Positions 375 through 59,517 of a stretch of DNA of 64,000 bases are shown one piece after another (within the stretch, counting starts at the first letter, position 1; each line of letters opens with the position of its first letter). The stretch is from Candidatus Gastranaerophilales bacterium (GTDB taxonomy: Bacteria; Cyanobacteriota; Vampirovibrionia; Gastranaerophilales; Gastranaerophilaceae). Made by a program: the position numbers and the translations under genes. Under the pieces are notes generated by a model. The model saw nothing but the letters and a program-made list of their open reading frames with translations. It searched no databases and was not told the DNA's origin. The DNA lies in contig CAAFYU010000005.1 of assembly GCA_900767135.1 (NCBI GenBank), forward strand, positions 18,371 to 82,370. Reading direction: 5' to 3'.

Positions 375-574
375 GGTTACTCCTTTATTTTGTGTGCATT
401 ATACAAGTTTTATATCGGCATATTTTTTGAAGACTTTAAGAATTATAGACTAATTGTTATAATTGTTTACCTTTCCAATCGTAACTTCTGAATAGCAAGA
501 AAATTTATTTTCACTAATCGTTCAAAATAATTTTCTAAGCTTTCAGAATGACGAGAATATTTGAACCGAAACGA

Positions 575-645
575 CCTTAGTGCCTTAGTAACCTAGTAAC
601 TTAATTTTTGCTTAGCTGCCTCGCTTCCTAGCCGCTTAGCTGCAT
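575..645 (-). repeat. GCTAAGC-rich dispersed element directly 3' of the rnhB stop codon.
   Basis: In gene sense: TAG-ATGCAGCTAAGCGGCTAGGAAGCGAGGCAGCTAAGC... About 40 nt are near-identical to 32803-32845. Confidence 0.75.
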
Positions 646-1278
646 CTATACCTCATTATATGTTTTGAAATGCGTTTTACAAACTTCTTTCAAGCGGTCT
701 TTACCATACTTTCCAATGAACTCTGCCGCAACATTTTTAACCAACCCTGAACAGCCTTTTTGAAATTTCAATCCATAATTGTCTTCCATAGCCTGCATTT
801 TTTCAACAAAAGTAGCACGAGCTAAAACAGACGCTGCTGCAACCGCAATGTCACTTTCAGCCTTACACATCTGCTCCAAACGAATAGTTCTGCCATTTTT
901 CATTAACGCTGATTCAATTAAACTTTCATCACCAAATTTGTCCGAAAGTGCGTATTCACAGCGATTTTTCTCCAAAATATTTTCAATAACTCTTGCATGC
1001 CCCCATGCCAGAAGCTTATTCAGGTTTTTAATATTTGCGTAAAGCTCGTTATATTTAGAATTTGAAATTGCAATAATCGAATGTGGTGCAGTTTTTTTTA
1101 TTTCGCCGGCAAGCATTAACATTTTTTTATCAGAAAGCTTTTTGCTGTCTTTAATCCCGAGTTCCTTAAAGTATTCAGCGGCTTTTTCGTCTGCTAAAAC
1201 CCCTGCAATTACCAAAGGCCCAAAGAAATCGCCCTTCCCTGACTCATCTGTTCCAATATGTGCAATAAATTCTGTCAT
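646..1278 (-). CDS. rnhB: Ribonuclease HII
   Basis: 210 aa. N-terminal IGTDESGKGDFFGPLVIAGV is the typical RNase HII catalytic motif (DESG/RG). Length fits the family. Confidence 0.9.
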   Translation of the reverse strand: MTEFIAHIGTDESGKGDFFGPLVIAGVLADEKAAEYFKELGIKDSKKLSDKKMLMLAGEIKKTAPHSIIAISNSKYNELYANIKNLNKLLAWGHARVIENILEKNRCEYALSDKFGDESLIESALMKNGRTIRLEQMCKAESDIAVAAASVLARATFVEKMQAMEDNYGLKFQKGCSGLVKNVAAEFIGKYGKDRLKEVCKTHFKTYNEV

Positions 1279-1317
1279 TTTGTCCTTTCGATTGTTTATA
1301 AAAAGAATAAGAAATAA

Positions 1318-1441
1318 GTGAATGGTGAATAGTGAGTAGTGAATTGTTCTTATAGATTAAAATTATTTTCCTGTATCATAGTCATATATAATTATATTTT
1401 TATTGATATGAACTACTCACTACTCACTATTCACCATTCAC
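1318..1441. repeat. Inverted-repeat element. Two ~26-nt arms built from tandem GTGARTR heptamers (GTGAATGGTGAATAGTGAGTAGTGAA and its reverse complement) flank a 72-nt AT-rich centre.
   Basis: Arm 1318-1343 is the exact reverse complement of 1419-1441, extending imperfectly toward 1416. Intergenic between rnhB and the PBP1A gene. Confidence 0.85.
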
Positions 1442-1480
1442 TACCAGCAAAATTCGGCTTCCCAGTTACCTAGCCACTTC

Positions 1481-4999: not shown

Positions 5000-5189
5000 T
5001 TTTGTTTTCCTTCTTAATTTTGTAACTGTTCTGAAATCTGTTTCAGACTTCAACTTTCGAGTTTTTCAAATACCGCAGCCGCGCCGTATCTGTTAAACTC
5101 TTGAATAAGGTTAAGAGGAATTACCTTATTCCACAATAGATTAAATCACAAAACTTTTGACTAATCAAGTATAGATTAAAAAAGATTAA

Positions 5190-5233
5190 TCAAAACACAA
5201 AAACCGTCGAATTGTAATGACAATCCGACGGTT
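5190..5233 (-). terminator. Rho-independent terminator of the Fe-ADH gene
   Basis: 8-bp stem AACCGTCG/CGACGGTT followed on the minus strand by a U-rich tract. Confidence 0.6.
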
Positions 5234-5252
5234 TAGTGCAAAAATAATTAAA

Positions 5253-6461
5253 TTATAGAGGTTTTACAGAGTTTCTGTAAATTTCTTCTACAACTTTTCT
5301 GCTGTTTCCGGAAGGTGCAATGTCGATTAAGCCTGCCAATGATGGTGTTGTGAATACTAAATCTGTTAGTTTTTCAACATCAGCTTCTGTAAAGCCTTCA
5401 TCTGTTAATTTTTCTTTTACACCAACAGAATACAACCAGTCTTGAACTTTTTTCGCAGCTTTATCTGCATCAGATGCTTCCGGTTTTAAGTTTGGAGCAA
5501 TTGGAGCCAAAATGTCTGCCAAAACGTTCGGTCTGTCTTTGTAAATAGTTTTGATTACGGCAGGTAAAAGAATTGCTAAACCTAAACCATGTGACAAATC
5601 AGGTTTTACGGCACTCAATGGGTGTTCAAGTGCGTGAGTGTAGTGTAATAAGCCGTTATCAAAGCTTACTCCGCCCATCATAGCAGCGTATGCCAAGAAG
5701 TAACGAGCTTCCAAATCATCAGGATTTGCAATTGCTTTTGGTAAATATTTTGCAACAAGTTCAATTACTTGTTTTGCCAAAGTGATTGAATAAGGTGATG
5801 CAACAGTTGAAGTTGCAGCTTCTACAACGTGGTTTACAGCATCAATTGAAACGTATCTTGTTTGTTTTGGTGACAATTTTGTCATCAATTGAGGATCATC
5901 AATTGCAAACATCGGATAAATGCAATCGTACGCAATTGCCGGTTTGAAGTTCTTTTCCAAGTTTGTTACAACTGCAAATCTGTTTGTTTCAGTACCAGTG
6001 CCATGAGTTAGATTGATTGAAACAATCGGTGCAGCTTTTTCAGGTGTAAATCTGAATTCATAAATATCGTCCGCAGATTTTTCAGGGTATTCAAGTAAAA
6101 TTGCAACTGATTTTCCTGCATCTGTCGGAGAGCCACCACCGATTGAGATAACAGCTTTTGCACCGAAATCTCTTGCTAATTTAGCTGCATCATCAACGTG
6201 ATGAGTGTTAGGATTTGGTGTGACTTCTGCAAAGTTTACATAGCCAATACCATTTTCTTTCAAAGCTTTTTCAACGTAATCCCAAGCACCTGTTGCTTTG
6301 TAAGCGTGTTTCCCTGACATTACGATAACTTTATCAATGCCTTTGCCTTTTAATACTTTTGCGATATCATCAATTTTTTTGATAGCACCAACACCAAAAT
6401 AAACAGTAGTTCTAGTGCGAATTTCTTTAACTTCATTGATGTTAATATCTTTTTCCCACAT
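5253..6461 (-). CDS. Iron-containing (group III) alcohol dehydrogenase
   Basis: 402 aa. GGGSPTDAGK NAD-binding motif and conserved His cluster (HYTHALEHPLS). A stem-loop terminator follows. Confidence 0.85.
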   Translation of the reverse strand: MWEKDININEVKEIRTRTTVYFGVGAIKKIDDIAKVLKGKGIDKVIVMSGKHAYKATGAWDYVEKALKENGIGYVNFAEVTPNPNTHHVDDAAKLARDFGAKAVISIGGGSPTDAGKSVAILLEYPEKSADDIYEFRFTPEKAAPIVSINLTHGTGTETNRFAVVTNLEKNFKPAIAYDCIYPMFAIDDPQLMTKLSPKQTRYVSIDAVNHVVEAATSTVASPYSITLAKQVIELVAKYLPKAIANPDDLEARYFLAYAAMMGGVSFDNGLLHYTHALEHPLSAVKPDLSHGLGLAILLPAVIKTIYKDRPNVLADILAPIAPNLKPEASDADKAAKKVQDWLYSVGVKEKLTDEGFTEADVEKLTDLVFTTPSLAGLIDIAPSGNSRKVVEEIYRNSVKPL

Positions 6462-16430: not shown

Positions 16431-16910
16431 ATGCCGGAAGATTTATTAGAAAGAAAATCAAATTTTGACTTAACATCTAGAAGTGCTTTTTCAAATAACG
16501 AGGAAGTTTTCACATCTCGTTCGTACGCTGCACTTTTGGCGAAAAATATCATTCCATATTCGCATAAAAAAATTGCAGATAATTATACGATTATTAAAAA
16601 AGTTTTTAAATTCCAGGCTGTAATGCCAAGAATAACAAATGCAGAAAAGACTCTTTTGGCAAAGTATGATTTTAATACTCTTGAATACACGACAGTAAAA
16701 CAAATGTATGAAGAATTGACACTATTGCAGAAATGGTCTATGTCTGATGACGAAAATTTAAAAAAAGATTCTGATGCAATTTTAGAAATTCGAACAAAAG
16801 AGTTGAAATATATTATCGCAACAAGTTACGCCAATATTTCTAACGAAATATATAGAGGTTACTTAGCTTTGGAAAATTATTTTATCGAAATCAGCAAATA
16901 TTCTGACTAA
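16431..16910 (+). CDS. Hypothetical protein
   Basis: 159 aa ORF with a GGGGG/GTAG RBS-like stretch. Followed by a strong terminator. Confidence 0.4.
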   Translation: MPEDLLERKSNFDLTSRSAFSNNEEVFTSRSYAALLAKNIIPYSHKKIADNYTIIKKVFKFQAVMPRITNAEKTLLAKYDFNTLEYTTVKQMYEELTLLQKWSMSDDENLKKDSDAILEIRTKELKYIIATSYANISNEIYRGYLALENYFIEISKYSD

Positions 16911-16969: not shown

Positions 16970-17015
16970 ACTTTACTTTTCAATCCATAAAGGGTGGTTG
17001 AAACAGCTACGTTCC

Positions 17016-17330
17016 TTACGAAGTCGTTAGCTTTTTAAATTCTACCAACACCTAATGGGTGGGTGGAGCGGCACTTTTTACGAAGTCGCTTATCTTTTAA
17101 ATCGCACCAACACCTAATGAGTGGGTGAAGCTTCAAGCTTCTTACGAAGTCGCTTATCTTTTAAATCGCACCGACACCTAATGAGTGGGTGAAGCTTCAA
17201 GCTTCTTACGAAGTCGTTGGCTTTTAAAATCGCACCAACACCCAAAGGGCGGGTGGAGCGGCACTTTTTACGAAGTCGCTTATCTTTTAAATCGCACCAA
17301 CACCTAATGGGTGGGTGAAGCTTCAAGCTT
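17016..17330. repeat. Tandem array of five ~62-64 bp units. Core: TTACGAAGTCGCTTATCTTTTAAATCGCACCAACACCTAATGRGTGGGTG. Two alternating 3' variants: ...GAGCGGCACTTT (A) and ...AAGCTTCAAGCTTC (B), in order A-B-B-A-B.
   Basis: Direct reading. Units start at 17016, 17078, 17142, 17206 and 17268. The array ends at the base before the ppdK stop codon (17331). Confidence 0.9.
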
Positions 17331-20009
17331 CTATTTGCAACCTAGTGGTAATGAGATGTCTTTGGATTGTTTGAACTCAATTACCGCTTGAGCTGCTGCA
17401 AGACGAGCTTGCGGAACTCTGAACGGAGAGCAAGAAACATAATTCAAGCCAATTCTGTGGCAGAATTTTACTGATGCCGGATCTCCACCATGTTCTCCAC
17501 AGATACCACGTTTAAGGTGAGGTCGAACTTTTAGAGCTTTGTCGAGTGCTATTTTCATTAATTGTCCAACACCTTCTTGGTCAAGTGTTGAGAATGGGTT
17601 AGCTGGAAGAATTTTTTGTTCTACATAGTTTTGTAGGAACTTGCCTTCCGCATCATCTCTTGAAAAGCCGAAAGTCATCTGAGTCAAGTCGTTTGTACCG
17701 AATGAGAAAAATTCTGCATATTCTGCAATTTGATCTGCTGTTAGGGCAGCACGAGGAATTTCAATCATTGTACCAAACATATAGTCGACTCTGACGTTCT
17801 TTTCGTCCATAACTTCATTTGCAACACGTTCTAGAACTTCTTTTACGGTTTTAAGTTCATTTACGTGCCCTACAAGTGGAATCATGATTTCAGGTTTAAC
17901 ATCTAAACCTTCTTTTTTCAAGTCGCAAGCTGCATAGAAGATTGCACGAACCTGCATTTCATTGATTTCCGGATAAGTAAGACCAAGACGACAACCTCTA
18001 AGTCCCATCATTGGGTTAGATTCAGACATTGCTTCGACGATGTTTAGAAGCTTTTCATCTTCTTTGTAATCTTCGCCTTTTGCTTTTTTAGTAGCAACTT
18101 TTGCGATAAGTTCTTCCTTATCAGGCAAGAATTCGTGAAGAGGTGGGTCAAGAAGTCTGATTGTCATTGATTTGTCGCCTAATGCTTTAAACATAGCGTG
18201 AAAATCACTGTATTGCATAGGGAGCAAGTGTTCTAGTGCTTCTTTTCGAGCTTCCGGAGTACCTGCAATAATCATTTTTTGAACCCAAGGAAGTCTTTCA
18301 GGATCCATAAACATGTGTTCTGTTCTGCAAAGTCCAACGCCTTCTGCACCAAGTTCCAGAGCTTTTGCAACGTCAGCCGGTGTATCAGCATTTGCACGAA
18401 CGCCTAACAATTTGATATCGTCAACCCATTCGAACAATTTTTTGAAATTGTCGTCCATTGTAGGCGGAACAAGATGAATTGCACCGTCCATAACTTCGCC
18501 AGTACCACCATCTAAGGAGATTACGTCGTTTTTGTGGTAAACAGTTCCGTCACCGGCTGTTAGAGTTTCATTTTTAAGATCAATTGAAAGGTCTTCGCAA
18601 CCTGCAACACAAGGTTTTCCCATACCTTTTGCAACAACGGCTGCGTGAGATGTCATTCCGCCACGAAGAGTTAAAACACCTTGTGACTCAATCATACCAT
18701 GGATATCGTCAGGGCAAGTTTCAATTCTTACCAAGATAACTTTTTCACCTGCTTTGCCTCGTTCTGCTGCTTCTTCGGTGTCAAAAACGATTTTACCTAC
18801 TGCTGCACCAGGGGAAGCTGCAAGACCTTGGGCTATTTTATGTGCTTCTTTTTTAGCTTTCGGGTCAAAGTCAGGAAGTAGTACTTGATATAGTTGATTT
18901 GCATCAACAAGTTCTACTGCTCTTTCTTTGTCTATAATGCCTTCTTCGCACATTTCAACGGCAATTCTGACTGATGCTTTTGCGGTTCTTTTTCCGTTAC
19001 GAGTTTGCAAAATCCACAATTTGCCTCTTTCGATTGTAAATTCCATATCTTGAACATCTTTGTAGCCTTTTTCAAGTTTTTTCGCGATGTCAACGTATTG
19101 CTTGTAAAGTTCAGGCATTTCGTGTTCAAGTTCTGCGATAGGTTTTGGAGTTCTGATACCTGCAACAACGTCTTCACCCTGAGCGTTGGTTAGATATTCC
19201 CCATAGAACTTGTTTTCGCCTGTTGACGGGTTTCTTGTGAAAGAAACACCTGTCGCACAATCGTCGCCCATGTTGCCGAATACCATTGTTTGAACGTTTA
19301 CGGCAGTTCCGTAATTATGGTCGATTTTGTAATGTTCTCTGTATGCAACGGCACGTGGAATATTCCATGAGCGGAATACGGCTTCAATTGATTCTTCAAG
19401 TTGAACGTACGGATCTTGCGGAAAATCTTTGCCTGTTTCTTTTTTGATTAAGTCTTTGTAAGGTTGAATTAAAGATTTCCAGTCGTCTGCTGTCAGGTCT
19501 GTATCTGATTTGTATCCTTTTTCTTCTTTAATTTTGTCTAGGTAGTCTTCAAATTTTTGTCTGTCGATTTCCCAAGCAACAGAGCCGAACATTGTCAAAA
19601 ATCTTCTATATGAGTCATAACAAAATCTCGGATTGTTTGTTAGCTTAATCATACCTTCAACAGTTTGGTCGTTTAAACCTAAGTTAAGGATAGTTTCCAT
19701 CATGCCTGGCATTGAAAGTCTTGCACCTGAACGAACAGAAACTAAAAGCGGGTTTTCAGCATCACCAAATTTTTTCCCTGCTTGTTTTTCAATAGTATGA
19801 AGAGCTTCTCTAACCTCGTCCATAAGCCCTATTGGCATTTTATTGCCATGGTTAATGTAATCCATACAGGTTTCTGTGGTAATCGTAAGCCCCGGTGGAA
19901 CTGGCAAACCTAAATTTGTCATCTCTGCAAGGTTAGCACCTTTGCCACCCAAAAGGTTACGCATATCTGCATTGCCTTCTTTGAACAACCATACACGTTT
20001 TGCACTCAT
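17331..20009 (-). CDS. ppdK: Pyruvate, phosphate dikinase
   Basis: 892 aa. PPDK N-terminus (LFKEGNADMRNLLGGKGANLAEM), phosphohistidine region (GGMTSHAAVVA), PEP-utilising C-terminal domain. Has a ~12 aa C-terminal extension (…KQSKDISLPLGCK). Confidence 0.95.
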   Translation of the reverse strand: MSAKRVWLFKEGNADMRNLLGGKGANLAEMTNLGLPVPPGLTITTETCMDYINHGNKMPIGLMDEVREALHTIEKQAGKKFGDAENPLLVSVRSGARLSMPGMMETILNLGLNDQTVEGMIKLTNNPRFCYDSYRRFLTMFGSVAWEIDRQKFEDYLDKIKEEKGYKSDTDLTADDWKSLIQPYKDLIKKETGKDFPQDPYVQLEESIEAVFRSWNIPRAVAYREHYKIDHNYGTAVNVQTMVFGNMGDDCATGVSFTRNPSTGENKFYGEYLTNAQGEDVVAGIRTPKPIAELEHEMPELYKQYVDIAKKLEKGYKDVQDMEFTIERGKLWILQTRNGKRTAKASVRIAVEMCEEGIIDKERAVELVDANQLYQVLLPDFDPKAKKEAHKIAQGLAASPGAAVGKIVFDTEEAAERGKAGEKVILVRIETCPDDIHGMIESQGVLTLRGGMTSHAAVVAKGMGKPCVAGCEDLSIDLKNETLTAGDGTVYHKNDVISLDGGTGEVMDGAIHLVPPTMDDNFKKLFEWVDDIKLLGVRANADTPADVAKALELGAEGVGLCRTEHMFMDPERLPWVQKMIIAGTPEARKEALEHLLPMQYSDFHAMFKALGDKSMTIRLLDPPLHEFLPDKEELIAKVATKKAKGEDYKEDEKLLNIVEAMSESNPMMGLRGCRLGLTYPEINEMQVRAIFYAACDLKKEGLDVKPEIMIPLVGHVNELKTVKEVLERVANEVMDEKNVRVDYMFGTMIEIPRAALTADQIAEYAEFFSFGTNDLTQMTFGFSRDDAEGKFLQNYVEQKILPANPFSTLDQEGVGQLMKIALDKALKVRPHLKRGICGEHGGDPASVKFCHRIGLNYVSCSPFRVPQARLAAAQAVIEFKQSKDISLPLGCK

Positions 20010-23217: not shown

Positions 23218-23340
23218 TTTTTTTACCTCTTTATATAATTATAGTATTATCGACTTTATAATATACTAACATACTATTTTAAATAGAAAAAATGTACAAG
23301 AAAATTTGAATAATTATGAACAAAAATTAATAATTTTGAA

Positions 23341-23455
23341 GTGAGTGGTGAATTGTGAGTAGTGAGTAGTTCAAATAGCTCGCGTTGCTCGGAAGTAATT
23401 TCTAGTGCACTAGCACTTGTTATGCTCCATTCACTACTCACAATTCACCACTCAC
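23341..23455. repeat. Second copy of the GTGARTR-heptamer inverted-repeat element: 24-nt perfect arms with a 67-nt centre.
   Basis: 23341-23364 GTGAGTGGTGAATTGTGAGTAGTG is the reverse complement of 23432-23455. Lies between ftsZ and nadK, abutting the nadK stop. Confidence 0.85.
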
Positions 23456-24250
23456 TTATTTAGCATACGCCGGTGGCATTGCCCAATGGAGTTTGTTTTG
23501 TAAAATGGAGTAGAACTCAAAATTTCCTAAAAGGGCTAATTTCGCTGTATAAACAGATTTTTTTATTTCAATTTCATTGTCAAACTCAAAGAGTTCCTGT
23601 CCATCAGTAGAAAGCACATACTTTGATTTTTTATCAGTACAAACTGTAATTTTTTCACAATCCGGCACTACAATTGGTCTTGCAGTAAGCGTATGCGGAC
23701 AAATTGGAACAATTACAAAAGCATTTAACGACGGAGCCAAAACTGGCCCCCCTGCTGAAAGCCCGTAAGCCGTAGAGCCGGTCGGTGTTGAAACAATAAT
23801 TCCGTCCGCCAAATAATCACAAACAAATTTGTCATTAATCTTCAATGAAAAACTCGACGTCCTTCCAAAGTCACAACCCTTAATAACAAAATCATTCAGT
23901 GCCGTAAAATTTCCGCTTTCAAGCATTATTCTATCTTCAATAATATATTCATTTGCCAAAATTTTATCGACAGATTTTTCTATTTCCTCTTTTGAAGACT
24001 GAGAAAGAAACCCTAAACGTCCAAGATTTACCCCAAAAACGGGAGTTTTAAACTTTGCATAAAACCTAGCCGTCTTTAAAATCGTACCATCACCCCCGAT
24101 TACAAAGACGAAATCAAACCCTCCTTTAAGGTTATCAATATCTAATATTTGAGCTGTAACACCTTTTTGGGCAAGGATTTGAGCCAATTTATCCTTGATT
24201 TCTACCGAATGTAATATTTCCTGATTGTAGCAAATTGCAAAGTTTTTCAT
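23456..24250 (-). CDS. nadK: NAD(+) kinase
   Basis: GGDGTIL, NLGRLGFL and DGIIVSTPTGSTAYGLSAGGP motifs. Confidence 0.85.
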   Translation of the reverse strand: MKNFAICYNQEILHSVEIKDKLAQILAQKGVTAQILDIDNLKGGFDFVFVIGGDGTILKTARFYAKFKTPVFGVNLGRLGFLSQSSKEEIEKSVDKILANEYIIEDRIMLESGNFTALNDFVIKGCDFGRTSSFSLKINDKFVCDYLADGIIVSTPTGSTAYGLSAGGPVLAPSLNAFVIVPICPHTLTARPIVVPDCEKITVCTDKKSKYVLSTDGQELFEFDNEIEIKKSVYTAKLALLGNFEFYSILQNKLHWAMPPAYAK

Positions 24251-32802: not shown

Positions 32803-32870
32803 TGCGGTTAAGCGGCTAAGCAGCTAGGAAGCGATGCGGCTAAGTTTATTAGAGGCTAAGATGCGTAGAG
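32803..32870 (+). repeat. GCTAAGC-rich dispersed element directly 3' of the MBL-hydrolase stop codon.
   Basis: TAA-ATGCGGTTAAGCGGCTAAGCAGCTAGGAAGCGATGCGGCTAAG...GGCTAAG. Related to 575-645 and to 44736-44766. Confidence 0.75.
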
Positions 32871-40330: not shown

Positions 40331-40465
40331 ATTTTAGCACGAAAACCATTTTACTAATAGCATCTGAATAACTTTTGTAAATTTTACCATTACACATCAT
40401 AATCAGTCGTCATTCTGAAAGCATAGAAAATTATTTTGAACGAGTAGTGAAAAAATAAGCTAATT

Positions 40466-43748: not shown

Positions 43749-44735
43749 ATGAAAACAGCAGTAATTAATGATGACAAAATCATAATAAGGCAAGCCGATG
43801 ATATCAAACTTGACGGTCGAAAAGGTGCTATCGTAAAAGTTTTAGGTTGTGGGCTTTGTGGATCTGATATCGTTAAGTTTGTACATAAAATTGCGAAAAA
43901 CGGAACGGTTTTGGGGCACGAAATTGTCGCTCAAATAGTTGATATAAATTCAGAAACCAATTTTAAAGTTGGTGATGAAATAGTTACATCACACCATATT
44001 CCTTGTGGAGAATGCATTTATTGTAAACATGGAAACGTTTCTATGTGTCAGCATTTCAAGTCAACAAATATTCGCCCGGGAGGATTTTCTGAGTTTGTTT
44101 ATTTAAGCGAAGAACATCTTCAAAATGTCGCACATATCAAACCTGAAAACTTGACTGATATTGAGGCATCTTTCTATGAACCGCTTGGGTGTATTGTTAG
44201 AGCAGTAAAAAGAGCGAATTTATTGGAAGGCGATGAGGCACTTGTTGTCGGATTGGGCTCAATCGGAATTTTGACAGCACAAGCACTAAAAGCTTACGGT
44301 GCAAAGGTTACAGGCTGTGATTTAATTCCTGAACGTGTTGAGTTCTTGAAATCGTTAGGAATAAATGCAGTTGATGTCAGAACTTTGTCAGAAGAACATA
44401 AATTTGACGGAATATTCATGACATCAGGTGCGGACAAGGCGATTGATACAGCTTTAAAATACGTTCGAAACGGAGGAAAAATCCTTGTATTTTCAAGCAC
44501 TCCGCACGACGAGTCGGCCTATCCAAACAACGAAATCTATTACAGAGAATTGACTGTAATGGGAAGTTATTCGCCGTCACCTGCGGATTTAAAGGATTCT
44601 TTGGAACTCTTGAAAACGAAAAAAGTCGTTGTTAAAGGACTTTCAACAGAATACAAACTTGACGACATTGAACAAGCCTTTGAGGACACAATGGCAAATC
44701 GGATTATGAAGGCGTATATCAGTGTGAGTAGCTAA
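43749..44735 (+). CDS. Zn-dependent medium-chain alcohol/polyol dehydrogenase (threonine/sorbitol dehydrogenase-like)
   Basis: GCGLCGSDI with GHE, structural-Zn Cys cluster (CGECIYCKHGNVSMC), GLGSIG Rossmann motif. Confidence 0.8.
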   Translation: MKTAVINDDKIIIRQADDIKLDGRKGAIVKVLGCGLCGSDIVKFVHKIAKNGTVLGHEIVAQIVDINSETNFKVGDEIVTSHHIPCGECIYCKHGNVSMCQHFKSTNIRPGGFSEFVYLSEEHLQNVAHIKPENLTDIEASFYEPLGCIVRAVKRANLLEGDEALVVGLGSIGILTAQALKAYGAKVTGCDLIPERVEFLKSLGINAVDVRTLSEEHKFDGIFMTSGADKAIDTALKYVRNGGKILVFSSTPHDESAYPNNEIYYRELTVMGSYSPSPADLKDSLELLKTKKVVVKGLSTEYKLDDIEQAFEDTMANRIMKAYISVSS

Positions 44736-44924
44736 GCAGGTCGGAAGCTTGCTAAATTGCAGCGAAGTGAATAAGTGAATAAGAAAATAGGTGAATAGGT
44801 TCTTATCGCTCACTTTGTTCGAAATAATATAAAGCTTCTATATTCAAAATCTTTCTACGAGTATGAAAATCGCTTTTTGAAATGAACTTATTCACTAATT
44901 CACTTATTTTCTTATTCACTTACA
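44736..44924. repeat. Composite intergenic element: a GCTAAGC-rich module (44736-44766), then GTGAATA heptamer array (44768-44800), 87-nt centre, inverted TTATTCAC array (44888-44924).
   Basis: Direct reading. Arms are imperfect; about 19 nt match exactly. Lies between the two Zn-ADH genes and starts at the stop codon of the first. Confidence 0.75.
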
Positions 44925-44963
44925 AATAGTATTTGGGTATTCCCCACAACCAAAAGGAAAACA

Positions 44964-46007
44964 ATGAAAGCAATACAATATTACGGACCACAAAATATTA
45001 AATATGAAGAAGTTATGGTAAAACCGCCACAAGAAGGCGAAGTTGTCGTAAAAGTCATGTCAGCTTTGACTTGCGGAACTGATGTTAAGACATTCAGACG
45101 CGGGCACCCTGTCTTGATTAAATCAGTGCCGTCGGGCTTCGGGCACGAGTTTGCAGGGATTGTTGAAAAAGTCGGCAAAGGTGTTGAGAATGTTAAAGTT
45201 GGCGACAGAGTTGTTGCGGCGAATTCTGCACCTTGCGGAAAATGTTTTTATTGCAGACATGAAGAGTTCAATTTGTGCGAGAATTTAGACTTATTGAACG
45301 GAGCTTATGCTGAATATATCACAGTTCCGGCACGTATTGTTGAAAAAAATATGCTTATTTTGCCGGATAATTTAAGTTTTGATAAAGCCGCATTTTGCGA
45401 ACCTTTGGCAAATGTAGTTCATGGTGTTGAAAGGACAGGGATTAAAGCAGGGCAAACTGTTGGTATTATTGGGATTGGCCCTATTGGTTTGATGTTTGCA
45501 AGACTTGCAAAATTGAAAGGTGCAAATGTTATTGTTGCCGGAAGAAATCCAATAAAATTAAAGGCAGCAGAAGATTTTGCACACGCCGATGAAATCGTTG
45601 ATTTGACAAGATATCCAAATCCTGAAAAGATTTTTAGAGAGTTTACGGAAGAACACAAAGGGCTTGATGTTGCAGTGGAATGCGTTGGGTTGCCTGAGAT
45701 TTGGGAAAGAATATTCTCTTGTGTTCGCCCTGGTGGGACTGTTCACTTCTTTGGCGGGTGCAAATCAGGTTCTACCGTAACTTTTGACACAACAAAAATG
45801 CATTACGGCGACATCAAATTGATGAGCGTGTTCCACCATACGCCAAAATATTTCAGAATGGCGTTGGATTACATTGCATCAGGCGATGTTGAGGTGGAAA
45901 AACTTATCACAGATACCTTGCCTTTGAATAAGGTTGAATGGGCTATGCACCAACATATTGAGGGCAAAGCGATTAAGTTTTTGATTAAGCCACAAATGAA
46001 AGATTAG
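44964..46007 (+). CDS. Zn-dependent medium-chain alcohol/polyol dehydrogenase (second paralog)
   Basis: CGTDV...GHEFAG, CGKCFYCRHEEFNLC, GIGPIG motifs. Confidence 0.8.
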   Translation: MKAIQYYGPQNIKYEEVMVKPPQEGEVVVKVMSALTCGTDVKTFRRGHPVLIKSVPSGFGHEFAGIVEKVGKGVENVKVGDRVVAANSAPCGKCFYCRHEEFNLCENLDLLNGAYAEYITVPARIVEKNMLILPDNLSFDKAAFCEPLANVVHGVERTGIKAGQTVGIIGIGPIGLMFARLAKLKGANVIVAGRNPIKLKAAEDFAHADEIVDLTRYPNPEKIFREFTEEHKGLDVAVECVGLPEIWERIFSCVRPGGTVHFFGGCKSGSTVTFDTTKMHYGDIKLMSVFHHTPKYFRMALDYIASGDVEVEKLITDTLPLNKVEWAMHQHIEGKAIKFLIKPQMKD

Positions 46008-59371: not shown

Positions 59372-59517
59372 TATTAGTAAAAATAAAAAATCGGCAATTC
59401 TTAATTTTAAGTATTGTCGATTTTTTGTTTGTAATATAATATTTTTGGGTTGAGTGCGGATTTTACATCTCTGCAAAAAACTCGGAACAATAAATCTTTA
59501 CAGGACTAGGGAGAAAA

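Follow-up and report, generated by a model that had tools for sequence, protein, structure and literature searches.

In the gut Melainabacteria (Gastranaerophilales), a non-photosynthetic sister lineage of Cyanobacteria, the spacer between two genes for zinc-dependent alcohol dehydrogenases (ADH1 and ADH2) can hold a palindromic element whose two arms are inverted arrays of tandem 8-nt units. We analyzed this element, termed copy 3, in a 64,000-nt stretch of contig CAAFYU010000005.1 (hereafter the window) and compared it with contigs of other strains and species, which are designated by L-numbers (L001, L009, and so on). With somewhat better than even confidence, we regard the element as a recently inserted member, lacking an open reading frame (ORF), of a class of palindromic cassettes that have repeat arms and varying cargo and that resemble both the intervening sequences (IVSs) of 23S rRNA and the short tandemly repeated repetitive (STRR) sequences. 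The cargo of the full-size members of this class is a gene for a four-helix-bundle "23S rRNA intervening-sequence protein" (PF05635/TIGR02436), which is related to Avd. The sequences quoted in a preliminary description of this DNA, which took the spacer for the third copy of a composite element, were found where it had placed them. Chance expectations were set by dinucleotide shuffles for folding (200 shuffles), for inverted repeats (20 shuffles of the whole window), and for the comparison of element centers with PF05635 cassettes.

Strain variation in the ADH1-ADH2 spacer

ADH1 and ADH2 appear from their sequences to constitute an old operon into which the element was inserted late. The preliminary description had raised the question of whether the paralogs are tandem in related genomes, with or without the element; in each of the 79 species loci where both occur, the two genes are neighbors, and in 58 of these the gap is no more than ~50 nt and free of arrays. 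The pair therefore long predates the element, which entered a pre-existing operon spacer recently.

Among strains, the ADH spacer is a hot spot where cassettes replace one another. An ADH2 protein identical to that of the window is encoded on 23 contigs read, and the spacers beside it are 93, 177, 228, 236, or 295 nt long. The 228-nt spacer is the window type, and its center is 96.6-100% identical across eight strain contigs; the 236-nt spacer (L001) is longer by a single GTGAATAA unit, which lies in the left arm (five units versus four) and has no counterpart in the right. The 177-, 295-, and 93-nt spacers have content unrelated to the window allele. L010 and L013 share GCTAAGCAGGTCGG with the window, after which comes an intact small hairpin, GTCGGGTTTACAAATCCGAC, and in the 93-nt L010 allele this hairpin is followed by a right array, CTTAATGT CTTAATAG CTTAGTGC. 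At the site of the window's GTGAATAA arrays, the 295-nt allele of L009 has a left array of about six GCTAAGCA/GCTAGGCA units and a right array of the CTTAGTGC type; the final 21 nt before ADH2 are nonetheless common to the window and this otherwise unrelated allele. Other species have still other arrays in this spacer (GTGATTAA, AGTGAAC, GATAGGGC, and GTGAAAA).

Because the arm types of the L009 allele stand at the same site, GCTAAGC and GTGAATA are interchangeable arms of one kind of element, and the link that the preliminary description drew between the GCTAAGC and GTGARTR families is borne out. Both families are variants of tandem units (CTTAnTnn/nnAnTAAG) that arm one intergenic cassette class. 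The stop-adjacent "module" that was described with them does not hold together as a unit, since it consists of an array remnant and the GTCGG half of the hairpin that is intact in L010 and L013.

Variation of this kind extends to two further elements of the same architecture in the window, copies 1 and 2, whose sites are occupied by replacement alleles in L098, L100, and L106. Arms gain and lose units: the unit number varies between close relatives not only at copy 3 (L001) but also at copy 1, where L091 and L092 are short of one right-arm unit.

Structure of the copy 3 element

The ADH1 stop codon (TAA, 44733-44735) lies within a GCTAAGC heptamer (44731-44737), and the parts of the element follow one another from there to the ADH2 start (Table 1). 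Tandem Repeats Finder reports an 8-nt period in both arms, with 4.1 copies at 44765-44797 and 4.6 copies at 44886-44922. Copy 3 has terminal inverted repeats able to form an extended stem (arms of 33-43 nt), which are 79% complementary over 43 nt and, when shifted by one unit, 96% complementary over 25 nt. The leader that precedes the left arm occurs only at the ADH locus, in strains with the same allele, and its similarity to the leader of copy 1 is not significant. In the complete genome MEL.A1 (CP017245; locus L016), the ADH2 protein is 96% identical to that of the window, and alleles of the MEL.A1 type have a small hairpin analogous to the one that precedes ADH2 in the window.

Relationship to PF05635 cassettes

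In three related species (L011, L019, and L020), the ADH1-ADH2 spacer is 444-452 nt long and holds, at the same site, a cassette in which inverted octamer arrays (GATAAGGC... and ...GCCTTATC) surround an ORF of 120 aa. The encoded protein matches PF05635 (23S_rRNA_IVP; 5.5e-36) and TIGR02436 (four helix bundle protein; 2e-34), as well as the Avd models weakly, and the terminal inverted repeats of the L011 and L019 cassettes measure 30-39 nt. At a second Gastranaerophilales-like locus (L111-L130), (NNACTAAG)4 and (CTTAGTNN)4 bracket a PF05635 homolog.

The association of such arms with PF05635 genes recurs well beyond these loci. A metagenome scan with an alignment of the cassette protein returned 80 loci, 52 of them with enough flanking sequence, and in 33 of the 52 the PF05635 ORF is bracketed by an inverted repeat whose score exceeds the highest among 20 shuffles by more than 2. 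The arms at these loci are mostly tandem 7-mers, with some 8- or 9-mers, and their highly diverse units include GTGATGG, GTTTTCT, GTGACAAAC, ACGGGAG, GTTGCGA, TTAGCAG, GTGACGC, and AGTGAAC. At L162 the arms around the PF05635 gene are TAGTGAA/TATTCAC, the window's own unit. An Rfam search found no rRNA in the 20 strongest of the PF05635 cassette loci.

A comparable juxtaposition can be read from published data on Xanthomonas campestris. The Protein Data Bank relatives of the L011 protein are 2RLD and 2GSC (E = 5e-24), the latter being XCC0516, a PF05635-family protein. A supplementary table of Rehm et al. 2015 (PMC4692102) lists, in the XCC0516/XCC0517 region, a GGGAATC repeat (no. 15) that lies 6 nt after bccP and overlaps the XCC0516 start; the paper makes no comment on the family link.

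An internal deletion of PF05635 cassettes was considered as the origin of the non-coding centers and rejected, as the likeness seen by eye (TTGTTCTTATAGATT versus TTGTATTATAAAGATT, and ...GAAC|TTA junctions) does not exceed that of dinucleotide shuffles.

In L011 (2571-3575) and in L019, the ADH1 frame has lost its own stop and continues into the left array, where it terminates (...KAYIIVEDDKAIGL*), so the array supplies the stop and alters the C terminus of the protein. Elements of this kind break assemblies and create spurious C-terminal extensions.

Stop-codon polarity of the arrays

Repeat arrays are polarized in their stop codons. The inward-reading strand has 11.0 stops per 100 nt versus 3.2 for the outward strand, and all three frames are closed inward in 19 of 35 arrays versus 4 of 35 outward. 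Arrays with more inward stops outnumber those with more outward stops by 22 to 3 (p = 1.6e-4), and the stop count of 115 exceeds the 64 ± 5.5 expected from composition only. Each of the six window arms has stops in three frames inward and in zero or one frame outward. Neither unit period, 7 or 8, is divisible by 3, and a single stop triplet in each unit therefore closes every frame. Inward-facing stops of this kind would allow a cassette to insert at or across the stop codon of a host gene without harm.

Repeat-armed elements elsewhere in the window

Four inverted repeats whose arms reach 25 nt or more are present in the window, as compared with zero or one per shuffle, and all but one of them are repeat-armed elements (1317-1442, 23339-23457, and 44768-44926). 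The arms of copies 1 and 2 are ~88% identical and their centers are unrelated; in pairwise comparison, no two of the three centers are significantly alike, and none recurs elsewhere in the window or at another site in the ~0.8 Mb of related loci examined. What the preliminary description called three copies of one element therefore share an arm motif and an architecture only. Since neither centers nor leaders are significantly alike, the three are instances of one design rather than copies of one sequence.

Table 1. Features of the copy 3 locus and of the other repeat elements in the window
Feature	Coordinates	Strand	Details
ADH1	43749..44735	+	Zn-dependent alcohol dehydrogenase paralog, upstream cistron; PF08240 and PF00107 domains
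GCTAAGCAG	44731..44744	+	one-unit remnant of a GCTAAGCA-type array over the TAA stop, then GTCGG, the 5' half of a small hairpin
Leader AAGCTTGCTAAATTGCAGCG	44745..44764	+	allele-specific, 20 nt
Left arm	44765..44799	+	AAGTGAAT AAGTGAAT AAGAAAAT AGGTGAAT AGG; four 8-nt units; stops in 3/3 frames of the + strand
Center	44800..44885		AT-rich, 86 nt, without ORF
Right arm	44886..44922	+	inverted array (AC)TTATTCAC TAATTCAC TTATTTTC TTATTCAC TTA; stops in three frames of the complement
Small hairpin and ribosome-binding region	44935..44963	+	hairpin GGGTATTCCCC and ADH2 ribosome-binding region AAAAGGAAAACA, beyond the element
ADH2	44964..46007	+	second Zn-dependent alcohol dehydrogenase paralog, downstream cistron; ATG at 44964
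Copy 1	1317..1444		same architecture; 7-nt units GTGAATG/GTGAGTA; between PBP1 stop and rnhB start
Copy 2	23339..23457		same architecture; 7-nt units; directly after NAD-kinase stop, upstream of ftsZ
Stop-adjacent arrays downstream of rnhB	575..645	-	GCAGCTAAGC GGCTAGGAAGC GAGGCAGCTAAGC, then AAGTTACT AGGTTACT AAGGCACT
Stop-adjacent array	32803..32870	+	GCGGCTAA-type, 8-nt period, then AGAGGCTA/AGATGCGT units

The resemblance that was proposed between the GCTAAGC string at the ADH1 stop and the two stop-adjacent arrays stands in part. Scored against 2000 shuffles, the short match lies above most of them: GCTAAGCAGGTCGGAAGC agrees with 32815-32832 at 16 of 18 positions (a score reached by 11 shuffles) and with 606-645(-) at 16 of 19 (reached by 56). 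The remainder of the module, AAGCTTGCTAAATTGCAGCGA, matches nothing else. The two arrays match each other strongly (score 46 versus a null maximum of 30), and as hairpins of their own, the GCTAAGC sites at 500-648(-) and 32800-32900 fold no better than shuffles. The content of the array at 575-645 differs between strains. Modules resembling 32803-32870 by eye are present in the ADH spacer of L009 and in the rnhB spacer of L095; BLAST gave no match there for L009.

Several further repeats were noted in these spacers. In the sister strain L091, the spacer downstream of rnhB (2133-2561) contains, relative to the window, an extra nested insert of ~160 nt with GACGATAA-type octamer arrays and a GC-rich hairpin (GTCGTCCCCTCGCCCCAACGGGGAGAGGG...), and the spacers are mosaics of small modules. 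A dispersed module, CGTCATTCTGAAAGC(A/T)TAGAAAATTATTTTGAACGA(T/G)TAGTGAAAA, is found at 486-580 and 40401-40454 of the window with 96% identity; in L098 and L100 (1149-1500), it lies upstream of rnhB rather than downstream and in the opposite orientation, which shows that it moves or is rearranged between spacers. In MEL.A1, a GTGAATG/GTGAGTG heptamer arm nearly identical to those of copies 1 and 2 lies downstream of ADH2 (5076-5353) and is followed by an unrelated, GC-rich, and highly structured center of 238 nt with CTGATGAG, and then by only a short inverted arm; this segment has no Rfam hit. At the outer edge of copy 2, a promoter-like TTCAAA-16-CATAAT (23313-23340(-)) points to ftsZ, which in the window comes after NAD kinase and not after ftsA.

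Other structured repeats lie elsewhere in the window. Five tandem units of ~64 nt, 83% alike and each containing the hairpin CACCAACACCTAATGGGTGGGTG, occupy 17015-17332 between the convergent genes 16431..16910(+) and 17331..20009(-) and have no Rfam match at the gathering threshold. The palindrome at 59375-59436, which has 30-nt arms (AAAAAATCGGCAATTCTTAA..TTAAGTATTGTCGATTTTTT), resembles an ordinary bidirectional terminator and is not related to the repeat-armed elements.

Folding, stem complementarity, and transcription signals

The spacer RNA is predicted to fold more stably than shuffled sequence (z = -4.4; 0 of 200 shuffles fold equally well), as are copies 1 and 2 (z = -7.8 and -6.1, respectively). 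These strong predicted hairpins are an argument for reading copy 3 as an adaptive RNA element, whose long hairpin would act as an intercistronic stabilizer, processing site, attenuator, or insulator that sets the ADH1:ADH2 ratio. Each of the three window elements separates two genes of like orientation and precedes a start codon, and repetitive extragenic palindromic (REP) hairpins stabilize upstream cistrons in Escherichia coli. Regulatory roles have also been proposed for heptamer repeats in Nostoc and Beggiatoaceae (PMC4679880, bioRxiv 2022.06.06.494920). We nevertheless judge the adaptive explanation unlikely. The element is missing from most species and some strains, and the same site is held by alleles of quite different content.

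The arms themselves argue against selection on an RNA stem. Mismatches between arms, read on the sense strand of 42 cassettes, comprise 60 G·U versus 67 A·C, with no excess of G·U (p = 0.59), and selection for stem pairing at the RNA level was set aside. Without such an excess, arm complementarity is more likely maintained by events at the DNA level, which would be slippage, arm-to-arm recombination, or conversion.

Signals that might act on transcription are likewise scarce. A terminator scan of 44600-45050 returned no site; an AT-rich stem, a loop of 86 nt, and the absence of a U-tract after the right arm likewise set the spacer apart from an intrinsic terminator, with its short GC-rich stem, small loop, and U-tract. 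Neither promoters, sought with a sigma-70-type consensus only, nor terminators were found inside the three elements or the inverted copy 1 allele (below). The suggestion that copy 3 is a terminator or insulator between the two genes is accordingly not supported, as no canonical terminator or promoter is found. The lack of a terminator and the position of the ADH2 ribosome-binding site outside the predicted stem also weigh against the adaptive explanation. At the gathering threshold, Rfam recognizes a single tRNA in the whole window, and a permissive search of 44700-44990 gave only snoRNA and miRNA matches at chance level. An effect of the predicted hairpin on the transcript is possible.

Repeat units as candidate binding sites

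A further explanation sees in the 7-8-nt units a series of sites for a protein with affinity for DNA or single-stranded nucleic acid; candidates are the PF05635 protein, an OB-fold protein of the cold-shock type, and a transposase or recombinase that recognizes subterminal repeats. In keeping with this idea, the units are iterated with a core (CTTA/TAAG, GTGA) conserved across loci, the arrays are tightly associated with PF05635 genes, and Avd-family proteins bind nucleic acids. A precedent exists in CspB, which occupies heptamer repeats with one protein per unit (cited in PMC4679880). However, units differ widely even within one genome (GTGAATA, GCTAAGCA, and GATAAGGC), a diversity that one specific protein would find hard to accommodate, and the window has no PF05635 gene. 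We consider a binding platform improbable as the explanation of the element.

Inversion of copy 1

At copy 1 the arms have recombined and flipped the center. The copy 1 center of the window, L094, and L095 reappears as its reverse complement, with two single-nucleotide differences, in L091, L092, L093, L096, L097, and L099; the inversion includes the innermost arm units, and its break points fall within the arms. Over 1090 nt of the neighboring gene, just 21 positions distinguish L091 from L094, and the other orientation is present in both strain clades. The two orientations were found in different samples and not within one sample. An assembly artifact is unlikely, since the 128-nt element is shorter than the assemblers' k-mers and reads. 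Copies 2 and 3, by comparison, have a single orientation in nine and eight contigs, respectively.

These observations invite comparison with phase-variable invertons, in which a recombinase would flip the center between the inverted arrays and so switch the downstream gene (ADH2, or rnhB at copy 1). The likeness lies in a short segment between inverted repeats that occurs, at copy 1, in both orientations among closely related strains; the host, moreover, is a gut bacterium, and Jiang et al. (Science, 2019) reportedly found invertons to be common in gut bacteria. Against this explanation, which we hold to be about as improbable as a binding platform, the sigma-70-type scan found no promoter in the three centers or in either orientation of copy 1, no recombinase gene adjoins the elements, and inversion was seen at copy 1 only and between strains rather than within a sample. 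The centers are unrelated from element to element, and the downstream genes (rnhB, ftsZ, and ADH) are housekeeping genes.

The preliminary description had also suggested that the element could be a recombination substrate. In one sense the arms are such a substrate, as the inversion at copy 1 shows, but not in a duplication of the ADH genes. The idea that copy 3 is the scar left by, or the substrate used in, the tandem duplication behind the ADH pair has its position between two paralogs as sole support and is refuted by the divergence of the two proteins (25% identical), by the adjacency of the genes in every locus compared, mostly across short spacers free of arrays, and by the restriction of the element to a few very close strains, with other alleles in its place elsewhere.

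Discussion

Inverton, adaptive RNA, and binding-array explanations are less supported than membership in a class of repeat-armed cassettes. Under the cassette explanation, the element would be carried passively, as a selfish or neutral passenger, and would not serve ADH regulation. Lying inside an operon, it should be transcribed, and its arms of ~35 nt would then form a long RNA hairpin. By analogy with the terminal stems of rRNA IVSs, RNase III probably cuts this hairpin, and a cut would split or reshape the ADH1-ADH2 transcript. The element itself would evolve by unit slippage, arm-to-arm recombination, and allelic replacement. It tells nothing of the origin of the ADH pair, and nothing shows that the pair is regulated by it.

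Several results weigh against this explanation. No target-site duplication was found, the flanks of the three elements (GA..AC, GT..TA, and TA..TC) being without direct repeats, and no clean empty site exists among the compared strains, whose alleles differ by replacement and not by simple insertion. No transposase or recombinase is linked to the elements, and mobility is thus unproven; together with co-transcription, hairpin formation in vivo, and RNase III cleavage, it is something that we infer. The 64-kb window contains no PF05635 gene or remnant, a weak tblastn match at 294-383 lying inside another gene. The copy 3 center is single-copy in all sequence examined and has no significant similarity over dinucleotide shuffles to the interiors or ends of PF05635 cassettes, nor to the centers of copies 1 and 2; the sequences thus do not demonstrate that it descends from a gene-bearing cassette. 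Finally, copy 3 has one orientation in the eight contigs, and its class lacks the G·U bias that selection on an RNA stem would leave.

Comparison with known systems

Intergenic tandem heptamers, including convergent pairs (descriptively), and ORF-containing IVSs are already known, and the lineage in which we find them here is new. The literature searched makes no mention of an association between such arms and PF05635 across phyla, of inward stop polarity, or of inversion and replacement at the strain level.

MITEs (miniature transposable elements with inverted repeats), REP doublets forming hairpins (REPINs), and bacterial interspersed mosaic elements (BIMEs) resemble the element in being small, non-coding, intergenic, hairpin-forming, and variable among strains, and in occurring alongside larger, gene-bearing versions. 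They differ from it in that the element has no target-site duplication, no multi-copy identical core, and no known cognate transposase or REP-associated tyrosine transposase (RAYT); its arms are internally repetitive, and its cargo is different at every locus.

Short IVSs without an ORF exist in Salmonella, and the ORF-less form in the window parallels them. The resemblance to 23S rRNA IVSs with the S23p ORF, as in Leptospira and Coxiella burnetii, is closest for the L011 and L019 alleles, which agree with them in size, in a PF05635 ORF of ~120 aa, and in terminal inverted repeats; the Coxiella IVS is 428-444 nt long, contains the S23p ORF, and ends in inverted repeats of 28 bp, which RNase III cleaves in mid-stem (PMC4990558). 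Both kinds of sequence are sporadic among strains and have no known mechanism of mobility. Unlike the IVSs, however, the element lies in an mRNA spacer rather than in helix 9, 25, or 45 of 23S rRNA, where IVSs take the place of the tetraloop, and its arms are tandem 7-8-nt arrays. The internal PF05635 ORF of the L011, L019, and L020 alleles is absent from the window copy, which has no detectable homology to gene-bearing cassettes.

Intergenic heptamers form the other point of reference. Cyanobacterial STRR sequences were reportedly described by Mazel in 1990 and tandem heptamer repeats by Jackman and Mulligan in 1995. With these repeats, the GGGAATC repeats of Xanthomonas, and the TAACTGA repeats of Beggiatoaceae, Cyanobacteria, and Bacteroidetes, the element shares short tandem units near stop or start codons, a unit number that varies between relatives, and the lack of an assigned function. 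Two convergent arrays close together, a trait of the STRR type, are present in the element as well, and Xanthomonas genomes hold 70-75 convergent inverted pairs of GGGAATC each (PMC4692102). The forward strand of the intergenic heptamers is rich in stop codons (PMC4679880). The host of the window element belongs to the sister lineage of Cyanobacteria. Copy 3 differs in having 8-nt units of another sequence, whereas copies 1 and 2 keep the 7-nt period, and the papers on heptamers cited here contain no PF05635 link, strain-level cassette replacement, or inversion, even though XCC0516 is tabulated in them.

These comparisons lead us to a broader proposal, which we put forward tentatively and think rather doubtful as it stands: that inverted arrays of 7-9-nt units with inward stops in three frames are the defining ends of a PF05635 cassette class that spans phyla. 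ORF-containing 23S rRNA IVSs would then be a special case that landed in rRNA, the STRR and GGGAATC heptamers of Cyanobacteria and Xanthomonas would belong to the same class, the ORF-less hairpins of the window would be its gene-less (MITE-like) relatives, and the PF05635 protein would bind or maintain the repeat arms. If this is true, PF05635 proteins gain a candidate nucleic-acid partner in the repeat arms, the stop-codon polarity suggests how insertions at gene ends are tolerated, and replacement and inversion at the strain level give these spacers value as recombination markers in gut Melainabacteria. The nature of heptamer repeats and the origin of ORF-carrying rRNA IVSs and their PF05635 proteins appear as two sides of a single type of element.

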